Virus record (IMG/VR): IMGVR_UViG_3300018059_000013
DNA length: 64,000 nucleotides
Reading direction: 5' to 3' (one strand)
DNA from: a virus
In this document: piece after piece, positions 8,576 to 41,933 of the stretch
Layout of the letters: every line of letters starts with the position of its first letter
Numbering within the stretch: position 1 is the first letter of the stretch
Program-made: the position numbers and the translations under genes
The notes under the pieces: model-generated
The model's input: the letters and a program-made list of their open reading frames with translations, nothing else
Databases searched by the model: none
What the model was told of the DNA's origin: nothing

Positions 8576-8806
8576 TCACATCTTCTCGAAGTATCGATCA
8601 TCAATTAGGGCTTTTGGGCCCCACCGTCCGGGTAACCATCCGCGCCCGCCGCTGCTGAGCAGGTATGCGTGGTATCCCGCGGAGTTGTCATTCGCTATTA
8701 TCCACCCAAGGTAAACCACGATCCCACCCGCGGGGATTAAATACAATCTCGTGTGCGGTTTGAGTTGGATGTAGAGGCTAACGCCTTTGGTAGCTCGAAG
8801 CAACAT
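8576..8806 (-). CDS. hypothetical small protein (76 aa)
   Basis: Weak; contains an LIPAGGIVVYLG stretch reminiscent of the small-protein families. Confidence 0.25.
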   Translation of the reverse strand: MLLRATKGVSLYIQLKPHTRLYLIPAGGIVVYLGWIIANDNSAGYHAYLLSSGGRGWLPGRWGPKALIDDRYFEKM

Positions 8807-8811
8807 CAGGA

Positions 8812-10365
8812 TCAGGGCTTACGGGCATTGATCATCGCGATCTTTTCCAATTCAGCGGGGGGTAGTTCACCCGACGTGGGGTGGATGATGCGAACCAACC
8901 TCACGCAGTTACGAATCTCTCGGCCATTGAGATCGATCGCCGAGAGCGCAGAGATATCTCCCAAGGGGAGAATCTTCGCCTTGGCGAGCATGAGCTCCCA
9001 AATCTTCTGACGACGGTTGCTGTCGAGATCCGGGTAGTCCAACCTGACCGTGATGCGCGATGCGAACGCCGGGTCGAGCACCTCGGTGCGGTTCGTGGTC
9101 AGGAAGAGAGTTCCCCTGTACCGGTCGAGCACTCGAAGGAACACACCGACGATGGCGCTGCGCTCCAGCTCCTCCTTCGTACGTTCGGCCATGAAGATGT
9201 CGGCCTCGTCCAAGAGGAGGACGGCATTCCAACGGGTGACTCGTTGAAAGATCGTGTTGAGCGAGGATTCCACCTGGGCCACGTTGGTGCCGAGCTCGGT
9301 GAGATCGATCGAATACAGGGGACGCTTCATCGTGTGAGCGTACACCTCGGCCGTGAGGGTTTTTCCCACACCGGGTTTACCGGCCGCAAGGACGATGACT
9401 CCACCGTGGCGGTCGTTGAAAATGTCTCCGAAACCCTCGCTCCCGTTCCAGTTAAAGAGCGAGGTGAGGATGCTCTTCATGTTGTCGGGAAGAACGAGCC
9501 GCTCGTTCGCCTTCTCATCGTACTCGTACTTCTTCAGATTCTCGACGTCGATGTAAACGTATTCCTTCGTGTCGAGAGAGAAGCAACGTACCAGAGGTAG
9601 ATGTTTGTAACCAACCGATTGTTCGCTGTGGCGCGCACTTCTCGGATTGGATTCCATGTCAGGTTCGATCACGACACGTCCGATGTAGCCGAGAGGCAGA
9701 ACAACGGTCGGATCCCACCAAGTCGCGGACGTCTTGATTGCTTGACCGGTGCAAACGTACTGCGCACCCATTTCGTCCTTCGAGAGACGAATACACTCGA
9801 GGCGACTGGTCTTCCATCGAGTCAACGTTTCCTCTTGAATGGGACGCATGCCAGACGACGAAAGGATACTCCGAACGGTAGCTCCACCCATTTCAGAAAG
9901 GGTGTTCTCACCCAACGAGACAGATTTCGTGATGTTCTCCATACCGTCTGGCATCATGGCGATGGTCATGTTGGTGTAGAGGTACTTGCCAATGAACCCT
10001 TGTTCTAACTGACAGGCGGTCAGGAAGATCGGGTAGGATTTCCCAGCGAGCGTGAACTCGAGAGTCGGTTCGCTATCATCCTGAAGACGAATAAGGATGT
10101 TCGAAAACTTGATCAGGCTGGTCTGGGGTTCATCGAACTCCGCGTCGGAGACCCGATCACCCAAGAGCTTCCTGATCGCCTGTTTCGCCGCTGCACCGAG
10201 ACGCCCATTTCGGAGCAAAGCGCTGAGAATAGGCGGCGCGAGCTCTGCGAGCTTGACAGTCGTGTTTGCCGCGGCCGGATCCAAACCCACGATCTCCGTG
10301 TGTTCGATTCCCGCGTTCGCGGCGGCAGAGATGAGCTTCTTCGTATTGATCGAAAGTGATTCCAT
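8812..10365 (-). CDS. AAA+ ATPase, paralog B (517 aa): divergent N-terminal domain plus C-terminal classical AAA module
   Basis: Walker A GKPGVGKT, Walker B LLLDEADIF, TTNR, PAFASRI. ATG at 10363-10365 with AAGGA Shine-Dalgarno 8 nt upstream. Confidence 0.85.
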   Translation of the reverse strand: MESLSINTKKLISAAANAGIEHTEIVGLDPAAANTTVKLAELAPPILSALLRNGRLGAAAKQAIRKLLGDRVSDAEFDEPQTSLIKFSNILIRLQDDSEPTLEFTLAGKSYPIFLTACQLEQGFIGKYLYTNMTIAMMPDGMENITKSVSLGENTLSEMGGATVRSILSSSGMRPIQEETLTRWKTSRLECIRLSKDEMGAQYVCTGQAIKTSATWWDPTVVLPLGYIGRVVIEPDMESNPRSARHSEQSVGYKHLPLVRCFSLDTKEYVYIDVENLKKYEYDEKANERLVLPDNMKSILTSLFNWNGSEGFGDIFNDRHGGVIVLAAGKPGVGKTLTAEVYAHTMKRPLYSIDLTELGTNVAQVESSLNTIFQRVTRWNAVLLLDEADIFMAERTKEELERSAIVGVFLRVLDRYRGTLFLTTNRTEVLDPAFASRITVRLDYPDLDSNRRQKIWELMLAKAKILPLGDISALSAIDLNGREIRNCVRLVRIIHPTSGELPPAELEKIAMINARKP

Positions 10366-32742: not shown

Positions 32743-32750
32743 TACGTTAG

Positions 32751-32822
32751 CGATCCCGGCGAGGTTCGAACTCGCGTAAACGGAGTGAAAATCCGCTATC
32801 CTAACCGCTAGATGACGGGACC
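32751..32822 (-). tRNA. tRNA-Glu (anticodon TTC)
   Basis: Cloverleaf: acceptor GGTCCCG/CGGGATC, T-arm GCGAG-TTCGAAC-CTCGC, anticodon arm GCGGA-TTTTCAC-TCCGT; CCA not encoded. Confidence 0.8.
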
Positions 32823-32833
32823 GTGAAGTTCAG

Positions 32834-32905
32834 CTGGTCGAGGCGGAATCGAACCACCGGCGCCCCTTTTCCGGGGCGTACTCGTGCCACTTGAGCTACC
32901 GACCA
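32834..32905 (-). tRNA. tRNA-like gene with a non-canonical anticodon arm (type undetermined)
   Basis: Good acceptor, D-arm (G18 G19) and T-arm (GGTGG-TTCGATT-CCGCC). The anticodon region ACGCCCCGGAAAAGGGGCGCC can only form a 6-nt (GGAAAA) or 8-nt (CGGAAAAG) loop, never 7. Confidence 0.5.
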
Positions 32906-33153
32906 ATCAGTTCTTCGAACATGGAAGAACAAGAGACGAACACTTCACCATGGGGCGAGAGAAAGATTGTATCCTCTCCCTGAGATGCGAGCGGAGGAGA
33001 TATTTTGTCCACTCGCACGAATAGCGTTCCCCGTTCGAACGTTGTGTTGGCGTCGTTCGATTCGTATCCAAAAGGAACGTTCGATCCTGTTGGACCATGG
33101 CAATCGGATTCAGGATAGATCCCGATCCAGGTAGCCGAACGAAAGATGCTCAT
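32896..33153 (-). CDS. hypothetical protein (85 aa); 3' end overlaps the tRNA-like gene by ~10 nt
   Basis: ORF only. Confidence 0.3.
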   Translation of the reverse strand: MSIFRSATWIGIYPESDCHGPTGSNVPFGYESNDANTTFERGTLFVRVDKISPPLASQGEDTIFLSPHGEVFVSCSSMFEELIGR

Positions 33154-33311
33154 CCGTAAACACCTTCAGCGAACATCCACGACAGCTTACAATCAGGACA
33201 CTCAACACGACACGGCTTCTTGCACAGCTTGCTGCCGCACTTGACGTACCTCATCTTGGGATGAGTGCAAAACGCGCCTTTGGGCGGCATCTGGAGTTTG
33301 GGAGGTTTCAT
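33150..33311 (-). CDS. small zinc-ribbon protein (~53 aa, internal start)
   Basis: CTHPKMRYVKCGSKLC...CRVECPDC. Confidence 0.3.
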   Translation of the reverse strand: MKPPKLQMPPKGAFCTHPKMRYVKCGSKLCKKPCRVECPDCKLSWMFAEGVYG

Positions 33312-33457
33312 TCTTTTTCGCGACAACCATTGCGGCGCACCACGAATCCGAACCATCCGATGTCGAATCGAATGCAGTGCTTGACGCAAGTTTCCTCTAC
33401 ATGGAAGACCCATTCACCGGGCCGGCGCCAGGAACCATCTCTCCAGAAGAATTTCAT

Positions 33458-33688
33458 TTACGCGATCAGCCTCCAGTAACTATCCATCACAGAGTCAACG
33501 TACACTATGGTTGTTCTTCCCTTGGTGCAGTCGAACAAACACACCATCGTATGGGTTCGAAACCCGTCGTTCGGGGTCTGTTGCTTGACATAGATCTCGT
33601 CGCTGAGGATGAGGAAGCAGCTCTTCGTGACGTGATTCGTGCCGCGTTCCCACGTTTGTCCCTTCTTGATCCGACCTGTCTTCTTCAT
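33458..33688 (-). CDS. small-family protein (76 aa, IKKGQTWERG motif; Tudor/SH3-like guess)
   Basis: KxGxxV N-terminal motif. Confidence 0.35.
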   Translation of the reverse strand: MKKTGRIKKGQTWERGTNHVTKSCFLILSDEIYVKQQTPNDGFRTHTMVCLFDCTKGRTTIVYVDSVMDSYWRLIA

Positions 33689-33770
33689 CAGCAGTCCGTT
33701 TCGTCGTTATCTGTCGGAAGAGGTTTTTTTTCGGGTTCGAGAGGTTGCACCGGAGAAGGGAGCTTCTTCT

Positions 33771-34124
33771 TCATCGGGCGATCGTCTGTTCTACGATGAC
33801 TACCGCTTCGGGCGGAACAACGACCTGCTCAACGATTTCTTCCCAGCATTTGGATTCGCCCATCCCAGCGTAATGGGATTTTTGGTCCTTGCCGTCCTTG
33901 TCCACGAAGGGAATGTCGAATCCTTCGACATTCATCTTGAAAAACTTCTCGTCCAGCGTGGGACCATCCGCCATGGTGTCATCGTCAAAGACGATGACGA
34001 ACTTGACCCGCCCGGGTCCTACCTCGACGAAGTGAATTTCCTTCGCCAAGTAATCGTGATCCTTCACGCGGTTGATCTGCCTGAACCTGCGAAGTACTTT
34101 GAGTACTGACATCAGAAACCTCAT
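33771..34124 (-). CDS. hypothetical protein (117 aa)
   Basis: Preferred over the overlapping plus ORF on strand consistency. Confidence 0.35.
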   Translation of the reverse strand: MRFLMSVLKVLRRFRQINRVKDHDYLAKEIHFVEVGPGRVKFVIVFDDDTMADGPTLDEKFFKMNVEGFDIPFVDKDGKDQKSHYAGMGESKCWEEIVEQVVVPPEAVVIVEQTIAR

Positions 34125-34142
34125 CGGGATCGTGCATTTCCA

Positions 34143-34433
34143 TCAGACCCTGTCGGGCATCATCTCGTTCCAAACGTTCCAGCGAGAATTGGCGAAGTAG
34201 AATTTTCCGTTGTATCCGAACTGGTCCAGAGCGGTCTGCCAGGTTTTGGAGACCATGTCTTGGTCCGTTCCCTGGCGTTCGGCTCGAACGACCTCCATTG
34301 CGATTGATTCATTCTCGAAATCCTCGACGCGCATGATGAGGAAGCCGATGAAACCATCCTCTCCCTTCACACGAAGAGCCCATTCCTGCCCTTTTCGGAT
34401 CGGGAGATAACCACGGCGGCAAGAAATGTGCAT
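34143..34433 (-). CDS. small-family protein (96 aa, IRKGQEW motif)
   Basis: ORF only. Confidence 0.4.
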   Translation of the reverse strand: MHISCRRGYLPIRKGQEWALRVKGEDGFIGFLIMRVEDFENESIAMEVVRAERQGTDQDMVSKTWQTALDQFGYNGKFYFANSRWNVWNEMMPDRV

Positions 34434-34449
34434 GTCTAACGCTCTTTTT

Positions 34450-34656
34450 TCATATGATGTCCCATCCCGCCTCTATCCACTCTTTTCGGAAGTTGCCGTG
34501 GGCACGATGAACTTTTCCCAAAGGAGTCATGTAAAACATGAGATCCAGTGCAACGTAAACTACAACGAAACAGTACCGTGTTGGATCGATGTAGTGCATT
34601 AGGATGTTTCCTTGAAGCAATCTACCACCAGGGTCTTCCGGCACTGTCGACGACAT
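34450..34656 (-). CDS. hypothetical small protein (68 aa)
   Basis: ORF only. Confidence 0.3.
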   Translation of the reverse strand: MSSTVPEDPGGRLLQGNILMHYIDPTRYCFVVVYVALDLMFYMTPLGKVHRAHGNFRKEWIEAGWDII

Positions 34657-34936
34657 AATTAACGGTCCTGTCAGGATTGAAATAGACGGTGTCTCCCGTG
34701 TGGTACACGATCTTGTAGTCGTACATGTCGTCGTTACGACGATGCAGGGCAGTGCAGTTCTTCATTCGATAGATCGTTTCGACATCTTCGAATTCGGTGA
34801 CAGGAGGAGTCGTAACGACGATCCTCTTCTGTTGGGTGCATTGCAGAACGTTGTGCGATTCCCAGAACCATGAGAAGTCCATGGTGGCCGGAACATCCTT
34901 CAGTCCACACTTGCACTTTCTGACAGCGAGGGTCAC
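34622..34936 (-). CDS. small-family protein (104 aa, HTGDTVYF motif)
   Basis: ORF only. Confidence 0.4.
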   Translation of the reverse strand: MTLAVRKCKCGLKDVPATMDFSWFWESHNVLQCTQQKRIVVTTPPVTEFEDVETIYRMKNCTALHRRNDDMYDYKIVYHTGDTVYFNPDRTVNYVVDSAGRPWW

Positions 34937-35205
34937 GTCTTCGCCTTCAACTTTTCGAGGCAGACTGCACAGGAGATCTTCGTCTTTTCCTTCGTGTACT
35001 TGTAGCTATCTTCCGATATGAAGACGTCTGGATCTCCGGACGACACCATGTACGGCAGTGTCCACGCCATGCTGCAAAGGAGCTGAACGTCGCAGTCGGA
35101 GATGAAACTAGCTGAGTGAACGTTTGTCAATGACATGTCGTCTACTCTCCATGATCCGTCCGGCCAGCATTCCTCACAACGACTATCCCTGTCGCACTTG
35201 ATCAC
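34933..35205 (-). CDS. Cys-rich small protein (90 aa)
   Basis: CEEC...CAVCLEKL motifs. Confidence 0.4.
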   Translation of the reverse strand: MIKCDRDSRCEECWPDGSWRVDDMSLTNVHSASFISDCDVQLLCSMAWTLPYMVSSGDPDVFISEDSYKYTKEKTKISCAVCLEKLKAKT

Positions 35206-35214
35206 TTTAAGCCC

Positions 35215-35676
35215 TCAACTCATTCTACGACGAGTGTATCTTTCACTGACGTATCCACGTCCCATGTTCTTGCCGCAAAACGTATCCGTTTGCGACTGGC
35301 AATTGGGACAGATCAGACGAAGGTTCGTCTTGAGATTATTTTCGCAATTTCCATCGATATGATCGAGTTCGATGGGAGCGGGTTTGCCCAACCATTCCGT
35401 CAACCCGCAAATTTGGCACTGATTGCCGAACTCTTTGAGAAGACGCGATTTTCGACTGCCATCCGTCTTCAGACTATCGAAAGGAATACGACAAGATTTT
35501 GAATGCCCACCGAATTTGTTCCCATCAGAGAACGATTCGTTGCAGAGCAAACACACATGAGTCGTAGGCGGACCCGGAACGGGAGCAGCTGTTCCATCTC
35601 TAGTGTGGCTTCCTCGGTGACCCCCGAGCTGCTGTCCTGAACTGAACTTCTTCTTGCAAACATCGCACGAAAACAT
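35215..35676 (-). CDS. HNH endonuclease with N-terminal C2H2-type zinc fingers, copy 1 (153 aa)
   Basis: CDVCKKKFSSGQQLGGHRGSH (C2H2); CQICG...ELDHIDGN...NLRLICPNCQ (HNH). Directly downstream of tRNA-Gln. Confidence 0.75.
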   Translation of the reverse strand: MFSCDVCKKKFSSGQQLGGHRGSHTRDGTAAPVPGPPTTHVCLLCNESFSDGNKFGGHSKSCRIPFDSLKTDGSRKSRLLKEFGNQCQICGLTEWLGKPAPIELDHIDGNCENNLKTNLRLICPNCQSQTDTFCGKNMGRGYVSERYTRRRMS

Positions 35677-35710
35677 CTATATCGAATGTAGAATAGAAGT
35701 TTTTCTTTTG

Positions 35711-35782
35711 TAGGGGATGAAGGATTCGAACCTCCATACGGCGGGTCAAAGCCGCCTATTCTAGCCGTTGAATTAATCCCCT
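35711..35782 (-). tRNA. tRNA-Gln (anticodon TTG)
   Basis: Acceptor AGGGGAT/ATCCCCT, D-stem ATTC/GAAT, anticodon arm GGCGG-CTTTGAC-CCGCC, T-arm GGAGG-TTCGAAT-CCTTC. Confidence 0.8.
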
Positions 35783-35789
35783 GGTCGAT

Positions 35790-36293
35790 TCAGGTGAGCT
35801 GGCGTGCGAACCAGTTCAGAGCTTCGTCGATAGTCGAGAAGATGTTCGCCTTCGGGAATCGGGCGCGCAAAACCTTTTCGGTCTGCTTGTACGACTTGAG
35901 AGCGTGGCCCTCGATACCTACGGGGTCGAACACGACCACAGTGTCGAGCTGACGATCGTACAGGGCCATGGTCGCTTCCACCATGGAGTACGCGCTCAGA
36001 GGATTACCATCCTGTTGGGGAGATCCGATGTAGAAGACGAGGTGCGTGGCTGCCTTCTTCGCCGCTTCTTCCTTCTTCGCATCGTCCTCGGTCCAGTCTT
36101 CGACGACGGGATTGAAGATGTCTTCCATGTTGTACCCACGGCGAAGAAGAGCGGGGATGAAGTCCGCGCGCCACTTGTTGTTCGCCACCGTACCGCCGAG
36201 AAAGATCAGACGTTTTCGTGCGTTCATTCGAGGAACCTCTTTCGAGAGAATGTACATGAGAGCGATGACGCCCACGATGATGGATTTTTTCAT
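35790..36293 (-). CDS. membrane-anchored protein with a nucleoside 2-deoxyribosyltransferase-like / flavodoxin-like fold (~167 aa)
   Basis: Internal start MKKSIIVGVIALMYIL (TM), then RLIFLGG...VFYIGSP...VVVFDP. The listed N-terminal extension is a low-complexity artefact. Confidence 0.35.
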   Translation of the reverse strand: MKKSIIVGVIALMYILSKEVPRMNARKRLIFLGGTVANNKWRADFIPALLRRGYNMEDIFNPVVEDWTEDDAKKEEAAKKAATHLVFYIGSPQQDGNPLSAYSMVEATMALYDRQLDTVVVFDPVGIEGHALKSYKQTEKVLRARFPKANIFSTIDEALNWFARQLT

Positions 36294-36316
36294 TTCTTTT
36301 AAATTGGTCAAAGCAG

Positions 36317-36784
36317 TTATCTTCTCGTGCACTCTCCAGATTCGGCTTCCTTCATGAGCTCCCTCAGAACGAGACCATTTCCGTAGCGTTTGCGGGAAAA
36401 TTGATTCCCTACGAAGCAGCGCCCGTGGGTGTAGATTCCCAAGGAGTCGCGCCCGCGAATTCCCGCATTCTCGCAGAGATCGACGCTCTCTTGGATTCGA
36501 ACTAGAGCGAGGTGGGCTTGCTTTTCGAGCAATTGGGAGCACGAATCTGCGACTTCTTCGTTGGAACGCGGGACGATCTGAAAGGTGCCCCTTGCTCCGT
36601 ACGAATTCAACCTCCTACAGAAGACAACGTCTTTGTCGAATCCACTCTCTCCTCGAGCTATTAGGAGGAGAGTTTCCACCTGCCAGACTTCGACAGAGAC
36701 TGCAATGGTCGCTCGCACGACCTTGTCGACAACGTCCTCATCAACGTGTTGGGAGAATCTCGGTTCTTTTGTTGCGAGATTCAT
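36317..36784 (-). CDS. lytic transglycosylase (SLT-domain) protein (~156 aa)
   Basis: Catalytic ES (IARGESGFD) and GARGTFQIVP motifs. The internal ATG at 36784 is used; the listed 249-aa N-terminal extension is G/R-rich and overlaps gene 36814..37182. Confidence 0.55.
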   Translation of the reverse strand: MNLATKEPRFSQHVDEDVVDKVVRATIAVSVEVWQVETLLLIARGESGFDKDVVFCRRLNSYGARGTFQIVPRSNEEVADSCSQLLEKQAHLALVRIQESVDLCENAGIRGRDSLGIYTHGRCFVGNQFSRKRYGNGLVLRELMKEAESGECTRR

Positions 36785-36813
36785 CGCAAATGCGAACGCT
36801 GCAGCGTAGAGGT

Positions 36814-37182
36814 TCACTTCGTCTCTCGAGCGAGTTTCTGTTCTGCGTACTTCTTCTCGCGGCTGGACACCTTCTTGACGTCGTCCACCACACGATCCTT
36901 CTTCGCCTGCTCTGTGGCCAGCGGCTTGTTCTTCGCCGCCTCCATTCGGGCCTTGATGCGGGCCTTCTGTTTGACGGCACCGTCGGGGAAACGCTGGTTG
37001 AGAATGGCGAGCTGCTCGTCGAACGAGAGCCGGGCCCACTTCACGTTCCGCCCGTCGACCTTGCAATCGTTCACCCCTACGACGCCCTCTGCATCACGAC
37101 GACGCATCTCCTTGAGATGGGGACTGAACCCCTTGACTCCGACGTGGTGTCGTGCGTGTCCCGCTGTGGTCTTTCCGCTCAT
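36814..37182 (-). CDS. hypothetical basic protein (122 aa)
   Basis: K/R/H-rich, helical C-terminus. Confidence 0.45.
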   Translation of the reverse strand: MSGKTTAGHARHHVGVKGFSPHLKEMRRRDAEGVVGVNDCKVDGRNVKWARLSFDEQLAILNQRFPDGAVKQKARIKARMEAAKNKPLATEQAKKDRVVDDVKKVSSREKKYAEQKLARETK

Positions 37183-37216
37183 GTTGATTCCTCCAGACCT
37201 TTCGGTCCTTCACGGG

Positions 37217-37531
37217 TTAGAGTTTGCGTGCAGATGGGAGATTCAGGATCTCGTGATTGACGAAATGTTTGTACGTCGCCGGAAAGTTTTTCTTGAGCGC
37301 TTGGAGAGCCTGTACGATCTGCTTGAACTCGAAATCGGGTCTCGTGATCCGTATCTTAGTGTTCGCAGATGCAATGCAGGTGACCCATTCTATATGGGAT
37401 CCGCCGCAGTACATGGTTTCATGGCTCTTGAGGCACCCCTCTAGGCTCGGAAGTTCGGACCCAATGATTCCCACGAAACGTTCGCACCTTGGGCAGGTGA
37501 CCCTGTCGCAGCACGGGCAGGGGACTAACAT
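37217..37531 (-). CDS. hypothetical Cys-rich protein (104 aa)
   Basis: CPCCDRVTCPRCE motif. Confidence 0.4.
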   Translation of the reverse strand: MLVPCPCCDRVTCPRCERFVGIIGSELPSLEGCLKSHETMYCGGSHIEWVTCIASANTKIRITRPDFEFKQIVQALQALKKNFPATYKHFVNHEILNLPSARKL

Positions 37532-38421
37532 ACCGGCTCCGGGGTTTCACACCACCAACACTTTTTCGATCCGATATCATTGTTGCGTGAACACTGCTTG
37601 CACGGAGCTTCGACCCGTGTTGTAGAAACCTGCACCTCTTTGGGAGGGCAGAACCTTTCATCGCTCCGCGAGATAAAGCAGTAACCGCCAGGAAGATGAG
37701 CTGCTGCGGTCTTGCCACACTGCTCGTTGGTGCAGACGGGTGTTACTGCTGTATGGAGGGTGGGTGGGAGTCCGGCGTCGTCGTACCCGCTTGCATCCCG
37801 AAGAGAGGACGAACAGTACGGTGCTGTTGCTCCACATCCACACTGACACCGGCCCTTACCGTTGTTGTTCCATGCGAAATCGTCGCGTACCGGAACTTTG
37901 ACTCGGCGGGAAGGTTGCGTCGACGGTGAGCATAGACTCATCTCGTCCATGAAGAGAGGAGGGATCGGCAACTCGAGATACTCAAGGACTGCCGTGTTGA
38001 TCGCGTAGTCTTTTGCCAAGTTGGGGTTCGGAATTCCGATGAAATCTTCAGCTTCCAACTTTGAGAGTTTTACGTCGACGAAATTTAACCTATTTTCGAA
38101 CGCGAACCGGCGATGAGCATCGCTCATGGGAGTTGTGCCAAGACTGTTCGACATGCTCTTGGGTCGAGACATGAGTGCCGCCTCGGCATGAAGTCGCTCA
38201 TGCTCTTCAATGATTTCCCGAGCTTTCTGAATGTTCTGGAGCTCGACTATCGCGTTCTTGATGTCTTCGTCTGGAATCGACGGAGAGATGTTGAGCCATC
38301 CGGGATCGTAGACTATGATGGGCATCCGTACTTCGAACGCCAATTCTGCGTTCTTGCGATCGATCTGTTCTTGCAGAATCGAACTCCACGACTTCTTCGG
38401 TTTCTCGTGCTCGTCATCCAT
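37525..38421 (-). CDS. hypothetical protein with a Cys-rich C-terminus (298 aa)
   Basis: Long, protein-like ORF. Confidence 0.5.
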   Translation of the reverse strand: MDDEHEKPKKSWSSILQEQIDRKNAELAFEVRMPIIVYDPGWLNISPSIPDEDIKNAIVELQNIQKAREIIEEHERLHAEAALMSRPKSMSNSLGTTPMSDAHRRFAFENRLNFVDVKLSKLEAEDFIGIPNPNLAKDYAINTAVLEYLELPIPPLFMDEMSLCSPSTQPSRRVKVPVRDDFAWNNNGKGRCQCGCGATAPYCSSSLRDASGYDDAGLPPTLHTAVTPVCTNEQCGKTAAAHLPGGYCFISRSDERFCPPKEVQVSTTRVEAPCKQCSRNNDIGSKKCWWCETPEPVC

Positions 38422-38459
38422 CTTGACCTCCTACAGCCGTTGATGTTTGAATCGGGATC

Positions 38460-38633
38460 TCAGAACAACAGACCAAGAGCCCAACGTGTGAACACATACA
38501 TCCATGTTCCGGGCCAGATCATCGAGAGCAATGCACACTTCCAAAATGGATACGTGCGCGGAAACAAACCGTGCATGACGCCGTAGAGCAATACGAACGT
38601 GATGAGCGTGCAAATCGTGTACAGAGTGAACAT
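38460..38633 (-). CDS. 57-aa hydrophobic membrane peptide (below the track cutoff)
   Basis: MFTLYTICTLITFVLLYGVMHGLFPRTYPFWKCALLSMIWPGTWMYVFTRWALGLLF. Confidence 0.3.
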   Translation of the reverse strand: MFTLYTICTLITFVLLYGVMHGLFPRTYPFWKCALLSMIWPGTWMYVFTRWALGLLF

Positions 38634-38887
38634 TCTAGCTCCCCAAATCGGAATCTCAAGTTTGGGAGGGAAGAACGCACCGTTCGACCGACCCAGAGTT
38701 GAACGCCCGATTGCGTTCTTTTTAGCCCGGTGTTTCTCCGGGTATGCGTGCGCTAAGCGCTGTCTTTGTCCCTAGGCTTGCTGCTTGGCGGTGCTTCGGG
38801 ATCGATATCGTGACGCCGTCGAGGAAGGAAAATTTCAGCTCCCATAGAAGGACTTCTTCATGATGTTTCTCCTTTCTCAAAGATTCG

Positions 38888-38964
38888 CGGTTCATCCAAG
38901 ATTCGAACTTGGAACCGAACGGGTTCTAACACCCGAGCGCTCTACCAATTTGAGCTAATGAACC
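38888..38964 (-). tRNA. tRNA-like gene (77 nt) with an irregular anticodon arm, type undetermined
   Basis: Perfect acceptor GGTTCAT/ATGAACC, D-arm GCTC...GAGC, T-arm CCAAG-TTCGAAT-CTTGG. The anticodon region CGGGT-GTTAGA-ACCCG gives a 6-nt loop (or 8-nt with a 4-bp stem). Confidence 0.5.
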
Positions 38965-39218
38965 TGGTTATTGTAGATTTCGTACTGGTACGAACAGAGT
39001 TCACACAGTCCCGAAGATGTCGAAACAATCGCTTTTCTTCTCGATATATACGAAACCAGAACTAGATCACCTGCTTTTGCGACGATCTTTTGATTCGAAC
39101 AAAGAATGTGATTGAAGGGAATCACTCCCAACCCGGGAACTTCGATCAACGTCGTTTTCAGACAGACGTGGGTAGCAGTTCGAATTCGCCATGCCCGGGC
39201 TGCTCCTCCGTCTTTCAC
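38955..39218 (-). CDS. small-family protein (87 aa, KAGDLVLV motif); 3' end overlaps the tRNA-like gene
   Basis: ORF only. Confidence 0.3.
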   Translation of the reverse strand: MKDGGAARAWRIRTATHVCLKTTLIEVPGLGVIPFNHILCSNQKIVAKAGDLVLVSYISRRKAIVSTSSGLCELCSYQYEIYNNQVH

Positions 39219-39222
39219 CGTT

Positions 39223-39438
39223 TCACCAGTTCTTCAGATCACGGATCTTGCGAGTGTCACCCTCGAACCACACCAGCCCAAAAAAACCCCGCTCGTAGAA
39301 CAGGGTCGCCAGCCCGGCCTTCCCCAGTTCCGAAGCCTCGTACAACGTGGGGAAGTCCACACGACGAGCGCCCGTCCATCGACGTTGGAAAGGCTTGTGT
39401 CCGATCTTGGTAGGTTTCTTTCCAGTGAACATGTTCAT
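39223..39438 (-). CDS. hypothetical small protein (internal start MNMFTGKK)
   Basis: ORF only. Confidence 0.3.
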   Translation of the reverse strand: MNMFTGKKPTKIGHKPFQRRWTGARRVDFPTLYEASELGKAGLATLFYERGFFGLVWFEGDTRKIRDLKNW

Positions 39439-41385: not shown

Positions 41386-41453
41386 GATGAGAGCCGCAGA
41401 TCTGGATCGAACAGACGACAACCGCTTTACGAAAACGGGGCTCTACCTCTGAG

Positions 41454-41933
41454 CTACTGCGGCGAAGGATATTTGTAGTACTTTTTTCGTAGTATCAATC
41501 GCGATGTCTTAAATTTTCCTCTGTTTTTTCCAGCGTACGAATCAGTTTGCGCGTGGCAATTAGGACAGATGAATCTGAGATTTTCTATCGAATTGATCTC
41601 AGGATTTCCGTCAACGTGATCCATTTGAATGGGAGCGGATTTCCCACACCATTCTTCGATCCCGCAAATTTCGCATTTTACTCCTCTTTCAGAGAGGAGT
41701 CTCGTCTTTCTAGTACCATCTTTTTTGACATCTTCGAATGCCAGTGCGTGCAATCGTTTGTGACCGCCCAGCCGATATCCAGTCTCAAAATGCTTTCTGC
41801 AGATATTGTACGTATGAGTTTTGTCAGATGGTGGAATTTTCCACGAAGGATCTCTTCGTGTGTGTCCACTACGATGTCCTCCTAAACGAGAAGAATTCTC
41901 GAACTCTTTCCCATGCACGTCGCATGAAAACAT
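41454..41933 (-). CDS. HNH endonuclease with N-terminal C2H2-type zinc fingers, copy 2
   Basis: MFSCDVHGKEF...GGHRSGH; CEICG...QMDHVDGN...NLRFICPNCH. Paralog of 35215..35676. Confidence 0.75.
   Translation of the reverse strand: MFSCDVHGKEFENSSRLGGHRSGHTRRDPSWKIPPSDKTHTYNICRKHFETGYRLGGHKRLHALAFEDVKKDGTRKTRLLSERGVKCEICGIEEWCGKSAPIQMDHVDGNPEINSIENLRFICPNCHAQTDSYAGKNRGKFKTSRLILRKKYYKYPSPQ

Follow-up and report, generated by a model that had tools for sequence, protein, structure and literature searches.

The stretch of DNA analysed here (the window) is 64 kb long and represents, by coordinate arithmetic, the last 64 kb of the 350-kb genome of a huge phage, virus record IMGVR_UViG_3300018059_000013. 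It carries five tRNA-shaped genes, all of them on the minus strand, on which ARAGORN, the Rfam tRNA model (RF00005, gathering score 29 bits) and RNAfold agree (Table 1). Three of these genes are canonical and specify tRNA-Glu, tRNA-Gln and tRNA-Thr; the two others, which we call TL1 and TL2 and which are the subject of this report, combine the body of a tRNA with an anticodon arm that is not closed by a 7-nt loop. A sequence-only reading of the window had described the Glu and Gln genes as canonical and accompanied by two tRNA-like genes with convincing acceptor, D and T arms but without a 7-nt loop, and ARAGORN, Rfam, RNAfold and the enumeration of stems and loops confirm this description; the positions it gave for TL1 and TL2 are exactly those of the Rfam alignment. 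Its count of canonical genes was right for Glu and Gln but one short, the Thr gene lying just past the range that it considered. As for the 'tRNA cluster' that it announced, the term suits TL1 and tRNA-Glu, which are separated by an 11-nt spacer, but not the whole set, which is scattered over 8.7 kb.

The bodies of TL1 and TL2 are those of generic class-I tRNAs. The acceptor, D and T stems count 7, 4 and 5 bp, respectively, with Watson-Crick or G.U pairs throughout, and the T loop UUCRANY, U8, A14 and G18-G19 are present in both genes. TL1 and TL2 possess all that recognition as a tRNA precursor and folding into the L-shape require. The minimum free energy of the cloverleaf computed by RNAfold is -32.6 kcal/mol for TL1 (z = -2.67) and -26.6 kcal/mol for TL2 (z = -3.38). 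The Rfam model attributes 60.6 bits to Gln, 57.4 to Glu, 56.2 to Thr, 46.0 to TL2 and 26.5 to TL1, which places TL2 above and TL1 below the gathering score of 29, and the alignment of both genes fails solely in the anticodon arm, where TL2 has an insertion. The variable region, for which 4-5 nt are expected in a class I tRNA, comprises 5 nt (CGGUU) in TL2 and 2-3 nt (CC or GCC) in TL1, against 4-5 nt in TL1h, the TL1 orthologue described below. The isotype cannot be read from the body: the nearest neighbours among 569 phage tRNAs are uninformative, and BLAST against GenBank phages gives just weak matches of TL1 and TL2 to Ile, Asn and Phe tRNAs.

An assembly or sequencing error is excluded, because TL1 and TL2 are base-identical in four independent assemblies, namely NCBI GCA_902730045.1 (metagenome-assembled contig CACVEL010000001.1, 350,418 bp), Logan SRR7006411, ENA ERZ27267809 and JGI 3300021090; a further contig reached via cluster-member look-up (L144) is the same phage, with 100% identity. 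Several other identities were considered and rejected. No tmRNA is detected in the window by ARAGORN or Rfam. An intron-containing tRNA does not agree with an excess of just 1 nt in TL1 and 3 nt in TL2, or with the absence of any Rfam intron match. In the case of a nonsense-suppressor tRNA of a recoded phage, the triplet UUA is present in TL2, yet outside any 7-nt loop; standard-code gene calls are dense in the window. Finally, a terminator is dismissed by the missing U tract after either hairpin.

The anomaly of the anticodon arm is different in the two genes. In canonical numbering, the stem 27-31/39-43 of TL1 is CGCCC/GGGCG, to which one additional pair is joined. The alignment of TL2 with the tRNA-Ile of the Brevundimonas jumbo phage Kabachok assigns CUCGG to positions 27-31, CCGUU to positions 39-43 and CGGUU to the variable region; in this register the 'loop' is the 10-nt GUGUUAGAAC, whose G-C and U-A pairs prolong the stem, and the mismatches C27.U43 and U28.U42 occupy the base of the stem, which would in effect be shifted two layers toward the loop. 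Every 5-bp stem was enumerated with every loop length for each of the five genes. Perfect 5-bp stems were obtained with 6- or 8-nt loops only in TL1 and with 6-, 8- or 10-nt loops only in TL2, and the Glu, Gln and Thr controls gave 5/5 pairs with a 7-nt loop. The best 7-nt option reaches 3/5 pairs in TL1 and lies in an impossible register in TL2. No canonical 7-nt loop is thus found by ARAGORN, Rfam, RNAfold or the enumeration, and the sequence-only reading stands on this point, which it had itself named among those that could refute it.

The 8-nt readings of the two arms are CGGAAAAG in TL1 and UGUUAGAA in TL2. The two ends of each of these '8-nt loops' form a Watson-Crick pair in the ensemble, C-G in TL1 (P = 0.999) and U-A in TL2 (P = 0.986), and the 6-nt form is better than the 8-nt form by 4.7 kcal/mol in TL1 and 2.7 kcal/mol in TL2, values that are nearest-neighbour energies of unmodified bases, so that base modification could alter the balance between the two forms. 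Furthermore, both 8-nt readings, C-G-GAAA-A-G in TL1 and U-G-UUAG-A-A in TL2, place a G at position 33 before the four-base anticodon. On these folding calculations, TL1 and TL2 are probably unable to read codons in the normal way.

Table 1. tRNA-shaped genes of the window, their anticodon arms and associated features (a two-base 'anticodon' is the way in which ARAGORN prints a 6-nt loop)
Feature	ARAGORN call	ARAGORN coordinates	Coordinates	Strand	Description
TL1	tRNA-???(aa)	32833-32905	32834..32905	minus	72 nt; acceptor UGGUCGG/UCGACCA; D arm GCUC/GAGU; T arm GGUGG-UUCGAUU-CCGCC; discriminator G; CCA not encoded
TL1 anticodon arm			32861..32878	minus	CGCCCC-GGAAAA-GGGGCG; six G-C pairs; hexaloop 32867-32872
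TL2	tRNA-???(ta)	38887-38964	38888..38964	minus	77 nt; acceptor GGUUCAU/AUGAACC; D arm GCUC/GAGC; T arm CCAAG-UUCGAAU-CUUGG; discriminator G
TL2 anticodon arm			38920..38935	minus	CGGGU-GUUAGA-ACCCG; 5-bp stem; hexaloop 38925-38930
tRNA-Glu(UUC)	tRNA-Glu(ttc)	32750-32822	32751..32822	minus	canonical (ARAGORN and Rfam); 11 nt downstream of TL1
tRNA-Gln(UUG)	tRNA-Gln(ttg)	35710-35782	35711..35782	minus	canonical (ARAGORN and Rfam)
tRNA-Thr(CGU)	tRNA-Thr(cgt)	41391-41463	41392..41463	minus	canonical; conserved in relatives L012-L014
HNH endonuclease gene			35215..35676	minus	N-terminal C2H2 zinc finger (Pfam zf-C2H2_6); PHROG HNH families, E down to 3.7e-25
GAUGGA family (other phages)			L034:1389-1464, L051:5698-5773, L067:643-718, L130:10871-10946		at least six further IMG/VR loci

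The comparative evidence comes from two related lineages syntenic with the window, the groundwater contigs L012-L014 and the contig L015 (SRR21686422), whose proteins are mostly 50-90% identical to those of the window. L015 possesses an orthologue of TL1, TL1h (L015:5707-5779), situated like TL1 upstream of tRNA-Glu; it is called tRNA-Phe(gaa) with a 7-nt loop by ARAGORN and is not reported by Rfam at E<=1. TL1 and TL1h are identical at 60 of 73 positions (82%), to be compared with 361 of 690 (52%) at four-fold degenerate positions in 24 pairs of flanking genes (binomial P ~1e-7) and with 71% and 92% for the true tRNAs Glu and Gln of the window and L015. Outside the anticodon arm, every difference preserves the structure: G2-C71 gives way to A2-U71, and G7.U66, G10.U25 and a U.G of the T stem each give way to G-C. 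When two tRNA-Ile paralogues of the related phages are added to TL1 and TL1h, 48/48 acceptor and T-stem cells are paired and four pairs are changed on both sides, a covariation that, with four related sequences only in the shuffle control, is weak evidence by itself. Because the identity of 82% contrasts with a neutral value of 52% and the changes in the stems keep the pairing, the TL1 lineage has been under purifying selection on its body.

The anticodon arm of this lineage has its own history. G33 and the 5' half of the arm, CGCCCCGGAAA, are identical in TL1 and TL1h, and the non-canonical arm therefore predates their split. The 3' half is AGGGGCGCC in TL1 and GAGGCCCAUC in TL1h, where the arm is weak, with 3 pairs flanked by mismatches and a loop of 7 nt (CGGAAAG) or of 5 nt. 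All the differences between the two arms give a better pairing in TL1, which is not the pattern of random decay. Counted from the alignment, the divergence is ~15% in the body and ~29% in the anticodon arm and variable region. The pair U1-A72 is common to TL1, TL1h and the Ile genes, G7.U66 is found in TL1 and both Ile genes, and the stem changes are compensatory; these shared traits show that TL1 has a common ancestry with the tRNA-Ile(GAU) of related phages and point to its origin by duplication of a phage Ile(GAU) gene, the loop C-U/C-G-A-U-A-A having become C-G-G-A-A-A-(A/G).

The tRNA-Ile(GAU) gene is present in L013 and L015, between genes of 76 and 49 aa (L015:5318-5393, L013:9118-9191), and absent from the same junction of the phage studied here, in which these two genes abut at 33457/33458. 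L012 has tRNA-Glu and neither tRNA-Ile nor TL1, and tRNA-Thr(cgt) is common to the window and L012-L014. Since the Ile and TL1 content varies between close relatives, the turnover of tRNA genes in this clade is fast. In the case of TL2, no orthologue is found among the relatives, and the syntenic site of L012-L014 is a plain 250-nt spacer; by this comparison TL2 may be a recent pseudogene.

Two canonical isotypes of other phages have peculiarities of their own. The near-universal U at position 33 is replaced by C in the tRNA-Ile(GAU) of L013:9118-9190 and of L016:2994-3070 (Brevundimonas phage vB_BpoS-Kabachok, ON529852.1), with the loops CCGAUAA and UCGAUAA, and this in two unrelated large phages; such a C33 may be relevant to the evasion of anticodon nucleases. 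The tRNA-Glu(UUC) gene of L012:10064-10135 obtains 47.4 bits with Rfam and escapes ARAGORN; two of its acceptor pairs are mismatched, and its T loop is UUUGACU, with U for C.

Searches farther afield returned little. No DNA-level similarity to GenBank phages was found except a weak tRNA-Glu match, and exact and degenerate DNA pattern scans for TL1 and TL2 in IMG/VR and JGI metagenomes gave nothing, or chance matches inside protein genes. Protein-anchored scans of IMG/VR and metagenomes retrieved a distant contig devoid of tRNAs (L001), L012 once more (as L017) and a 1.7-kb contig (L018); two of the three homologous-protein searches gave back just the query.

Odd anticodon loops are found in other phages. 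A length-outlier scan of IMG/VR, which looked for a common D arm and T loop with 2-5 extra bases between them, gave at least 121 pattern matches. Among the matches listed, 19 of the 116 ARAGORN-called genes have 6- or 8-nt loops, as do 8 of the 467 other, unselected tRNAs of the same loci (1.7%; 1.14 Mb). One of these odd genes, which we designate GAUGGA after its loop (arm CCAGA-GAUGGA-UCUGG, 6-nt loop), lies between tRNA-Arg(cct) and tRNA-Arg(tct) in at least 10 jumbo-phage contigs of 140-350 kb. Between two contigs it is identical at 75 of 76 positions within surrounding DNA that is 72-77% identical, the neighbouring true tRNAs being identical at 72/73 and 59/73 positions in the same comparison; the sole substitution seen in the family, GAUGGA to GAUGAA, is in the loop. 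The hexaloop of TL1 itself recurs in L092:9800-9876 (IMGVR_UViG_3300046012_000301, minus strand, on a contig of 68% GC), in the arm CCCGGGG-GGAAAA-CCCCGGG of an element placed between tRNA-Val(aac) and tRNA-Ala(ggc) that has no other homology to TL1. A scan for the GGAAAA hexaloop found no element but this one in viral IMG/VR, and in bacterial and archaeal genomes 4 matches by chance, none of them tRNA-like. These sequences indicate that sealed-loop tRNA look-alikes recur in large phages, that some of them are conserved and that they do not form one sequence family.

A different association is seen in L050 (IMGVR_UViG_3300042868_008486; locus of 34% GC), where an amber-suppressor-type tRNA(CUA) stands beside two odd-loop tRNA genes, the three genes occupying 8770-8843, 9669-9745 and 10000-10072; the odd loops are the 8-nt GGUUAGUA and the 6-nt UUGAUU, and L050 may be a stop-codon-recoded phage.

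The interpretation we propose, tentatively and with somewhat less than even confidence, is that TL1 and TL2 are functional, non-decoding RNAs of tRNA shape and tRNA descent. Both genes derive from ordinary class-I phage tRNA genes whose acceptor, D and T arms were kept and whose anticodon arm was remodelled: the pairing of normally unpaired positions builds a stem of 6-7 layers capped by 6 purine-rich nucleotides, GGAAAA in TL1 and GUUAGA in TL2. TL1 and TL2 would be transcribed together with their neighbours, TL1 preceding tRNA-Glu by 11 nt, and the RNAs would be excised by RNase P and the 3' processing enzymes and would receive their CCA after transcription, since none is encoded. The L-shape would form, but no U-turn triplet anticodon would be presented and normal decoding would not take place. 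The RNA could then act as the 'body double' of a tRNA by binding a protein with affinity for the body and the anticodon stem of tRNAs, which is the least secure step of the scheme; the likeliest partner would be a host defence nuclease directed against tRNAs, or another tRNA-binding enzyme, for which the sealed loop would hold nothing that can be cleaved or used in decoding. Such a decoy or competitor role is judged the most plausible in view of the attack that infected hosts make on tRNAs and of the divergence that phage tRNAs show in their anticodon loops (PMC10264068). The decoy or regulatory mimic that the sequence-only reading had mentioned as an alternative is the direction that we favour; the decoy role specifically deserves perhaps half of the confidence placed in a non-decoding function.

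Several observations weigh against this proposal. A single orthologue of TL1 and none of TL2 are found among the relatives, and the weak arm of TL1h (3 bp with mismatches) is read by ARAGORN as that of a tRNA-Phe(GAA) with a 7-nt loop; TL1h could then be a working, if odd, tRNA-Phe and TL1 a gene disabled only recently in this phage. TL2, devoid of orthologue, could equally be a recently disabled gene. A local gene exchange between phages could inflate the identity of TL1 and TL1h over that of their flanks. Odd loops occur in ~1.7% of phage tRNA predictions, and many of them resemble single-base indels of normal loops such as arise in ordinary gene decay; no tRNA-repair or anti-defence gene was recognised by Pfam and PHROG among ~30 window proteins.

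Known systems resemble TL1 and TL2 in part. Non-translational pseudo-tRNAs, a loosely defined group, are the best conceptual match, and notably the tRNA-Other of Bacillus cereus, a chromosomal pseudo-tRNA with a 7-nt loop and a Trp anticodon that acts within a larger regulatory RNA (PMC3399842). Like it, TL1 and TL2 are derived from tRNAs, have a tRNA-like fold, lack features of normal decoding and, in the case of TL1 at least, are retained; unlike it, they are phage-borne and their defect affects the anticodon arm alone. Other phage tRNAs have substitutions in the anticodon loop by which they have been proposed to escape host anticodon nucleases (PMC10264068). They share with TL1 and TL2 a divergence situated specifically in this loop, to be compared with the C33 of the tRNA-Ile(GAU) of the relatives and the G33 of TL1 and TL1h, but they keep a 7-nt loop and still decode, whereas the altered size of the loop and length of the stem in TL1 and TL2 suggest that these act as decoys and not as substitutes resistant to nucleases. 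The GAUGGA family and the L092 element likewise carry a 6-nt loop on an extended stem within a phage tRNA cluster, and L092 presents the same GGAAAA on a G+C-rich stem; their origins would be independent of those of TL1 and TL2, because only generic tRNA features are shared and no further homology is detectable.

Could these genes be mere remnants? That TL1 and TL2 are plain pseudogenes, inactivated recently by small indels in the anticodon loop and intact in their body for lack of time, is a serious alternative even if we hold it unlikely, and it is strongest for TL2, which has no orthologue and faces an empty syntenic site in L012-L014. The rapid turnover of tRNA content among close relatives (Ile, TL1), the 1.7% of unselected phage tRNA predictions with non-7-nt loops, many of them like one-base indels, the score of TL1 under the Rfam threshold with its 2-3-nt variable region and the 7-nt reading still available in TL1h all agree with it. 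Against decay speak an identity of 82%, where neutral sites reach 52%, with changes that all keep the pairing, arm differences that without exception raise the pairing of TL1, and stems and invariant nucleotides that are intact in TL1 and TL2; the G33 shared by TL1 and TL1h makes the oddity old, and the GAUGGA family, with its 6-nt loop, is conserved as tightly as true tRNAs. The tRNA shape might also be punctuation, merely a cleavage signal for RNase P and RNase Z in a long minus-strand transcript from which an idle RNA would be excised. The position of TL1 and TL2 between small minus-strand open reading frames (ORFs) in a densely packed, co-oriented region, and that of TL1 against tRNA-Glu, would suit this explanation, as would selection that acts on the three other arms (acceptor, T and D) and leaves the anticodon arm free (the body diverges by ~15%, the arm and variable region by ~29%). 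A normal tRNA would serve as well, however, and tRNA-Glu is just 11 nt from TL1; moreover, the stabler anticodon pairing and the conservation of CGCCCCGGAAA are left unexplained, and we regard punctuation as decidedly improbable.

The other alternatives maintain a decoding function. TL1 and TL2 might be decoders with enlarged loops, whose closing pairs would be kept open, for example by base modification, and which would act as triplet readers or as +1 suppressors: TL1 would read Phe codons (GAA or GAAA) and TL2 would read CUN or AAY (UAG or GUU within UGUUAGAA). The parental anticodons are indeed recognisable, GAA followed by AA in TL1, and ARAGORN calls TL1h tRNA-Phe(GAA). In E. coli, U59-U60 and A73 are identity elements for PheRS; U59-U60 is kept in TL1 and TL1h, and A73 in TL1h. 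An 8-nt loop occurs naturally in the yeast mitochondrial tRNA-Thr1(UAG), whose UUUUAGGU reads CUN triplets (PMC3113583). The 8-nt reading of TL2 resembles it by its U-N-U-UAG-R-N layout, both genes being natural and having arisen from another tRNA isotype, but the ends of the yeast loop cannot pair, whereas those of TL2 form the U-A pair on an extra G-C, and the base of the TL2 stem has two mismatches. The C33 tolerated by the related phage tRNA-Ile shows a lineage that varies its anticodon loops, in line with nuclease evasion (PMC10264068). Against enlarged loops stand the cost of the 8-nt forms (4.7 and 2.7 kcal/mol, with closing pairs at P >= 0.986), the G33 of TL1 and TL1h where the uridine of the U-turn is missing, the loop length that differs between TL1 and TL1h, and an anticodon that would be, in TL2, one or two stem layers farther from the elbow than in any normal tRNA. 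We consider this alternative improbable.

The sequence-only reading had pointed out that 8-nt loops are characteristic of +1 frameshift suppressors, and this part of it is unsupported. As in sufD, SufB2 and the engineered quadruplet decoders, the anticodon region exceeds 7 nt and the body is otherwise normal, and for an 8-nt reading ARAGORN would print a four-base anticodon, as it does for L092 (gaaa). The suppressors, however, have an open, enlarged loop with U33, whereas in TL1 and TL2 the additional bases are paired and make the stem longer, position 33 of TL1 is a G, and the loop of TL1h differs in length; TL1 and TL2 thus fail three tested defining features of frameshift-suppressor tRNAs. 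The +1 interpretation is not favoured because the 8-nt form requires the opening of a Watson-Crick closing pair, and it is weakened because a suppressor would be expected to keep the size of its loop and its four-base anticodon, which the TL1 lineage does not. The search for programmed +1 frameshift sites suggested by the same reading gives no signal in the window: at junctions where a start-containing ORF, at least 50 codons in, could pass into the +1 frame and stay open for 50 codons or more past its own stop, the cognate quadruplets are not enriched (TTTC 18, TTCC 17, CTAA 4, TAAC 0 and TCTA 5, against a mean of 14), in a scan of low power that covers 64 of 350 kb. A role as +1 suppressors is therefore unlikely. 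There remains the opposite case of doublet decoders, in which the 6-nt loops would expose AA in TL1 and UA in TL2 as an anticodon of two bases and favour shifts to the -1 frame. In the anticodon-replacement work of Bruce, Atkins and Gesteland, in 1986, 6-membered loops are said to have decoded doublets in vitro; in the TL2 hexaloop G-U-UA-G-A, the central doublet is preceded by a U and followed by a purine, like the triplet of a normal loop, and the sole substitution of the GAUGGA family exchanges a purine for a purine 3' of the doublet. The G that TL1 carries where the U of the U-turn belongs, the 5- or 7-nt loop of TL1h and the lengthened stems, which would misplace the loop on the ribosome, make this case very improbable; no known -1 site here needs such a tRNA, a frame resuming at the third base of TAA or TAG being indistinguishable from TAATG overlaps.

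The surroundings of TL1 and TL2 are densely packed with small minus-strand genes, mostly without known families. Those recognised around the two genes are VapE-like, Band_7, YggL (from the precomputed gene table), nucleoside deoxyribosyltransferase-like and HNH, and the Pfam and PHROG matches among the ~30 window proteins comprise PolX, AAA ATPase, VapE-like, Band_7, trypsin, WecG, nucleoside deoxyribosyltransferase-like and HNH. The HNH endonuclease gene (PHROG E=3.7e-25) lies 34 nt downstream of tRNA-Gln, as the sequence-only reading had noticed when it placed this tRNA immediately upstream of an HNH gene. It is absent from the corresponding junction of L015 (L015:2902-2997), where tRNA-Gln is followed within ~100 nt by a homologue of the 67-aa gene, an arrangement consistent with the insertion of a mobile homing endonuclease. 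The overlaps of ~10 nt between ORFs and the 5' ends of TL1 and TL2, reported by the same reading, are present but meaningless, the stop codon being the U8-A9-G10 (TAG) of the tRNA itself; the 87-aa ORF that covers the 5' flank of TL2 is not predicted by gene callers. As for a role of TL1 and TL2 as integration sites, nothing speaks in its favour: no integrase is found among the Pfam and PHROG matches from the searches run, and the genome counts 350 kb.

A scan for promoters and terminators found 5 promoter-like sites, where shuffled sequence predicts 6.0, and 14 terminator-like sites, where it predicts 10.3; these numbers are at or near chance, and nothing in them is particular to TL1 or TL2. 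Between TL2 and a gene for a 57-aa membrane protein (38460-38633), a spacer of ~250 nt on the minus strand (38634-38887) is partly conserved, over ~100 nt, in L012:5695-5944; it contains a hairpin, GAACGC-AAUCGG-GCGUUC in the window and GAACGC-UUCGG-GCGUUC in L012, and a very short upstream ORF whose ribosome-binding site is good (MKKSFYGS* in the window, MKLFNL* in L012), and it may be a leader or regulatory element of the 57-aa gene. On the other side, upstream of TL2 and just downstream of a 69-aa gene (39223-39432), a strong imperfect hairpin at 39154-39224 may act as a terminator or in processing; its miRNA-like Rfam match (mir-71, 28.1 bits) is spurious and under the threshold.

In conclusion, our observations bring into view genes that are normally ignored, since gene finders label them 'tRNA-???' or pseudogene, and the data suggest that some of them are conserved like real tRNAs. 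The searchable literature, whose coverage is incomplete, yielded no account of 6-nt-loop tRNA genes conserved in phages. Even if these genes turned out to be products of decay, a practical lesson would remain: the ~1-2% of phage tRNA calls whose loops are not of 7 nt should be credited neither with decoding capacity nor with frameshift suppression. Could large phages, more generally, keep a class of sealed-loop tRNA-shaped RNAs as uncleavable decoys or sponges for tRNA-targeting nucleases or tRNA-binding factors, TL1 with TL1h, TL2, the GAUGGA family and the L092 element being independent inventions? We regard this extension as speculative and rather unlikely, and the variant in which these RNAs would be doublet readers steering -1 frameshifting as less likely. 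The tRNA genes of phages are usually explained as helpers of codon usage or, more recently, as stand-ins for the tRNAs that the defence nucleases of the host destroy. A tRNA body maintained by selection while its anticodon loop is closed fits neither explanation and, if our proposal is true, would add a third way in which phages use the tRNA shape, that of binding or titrating something that recognises tRNAs.

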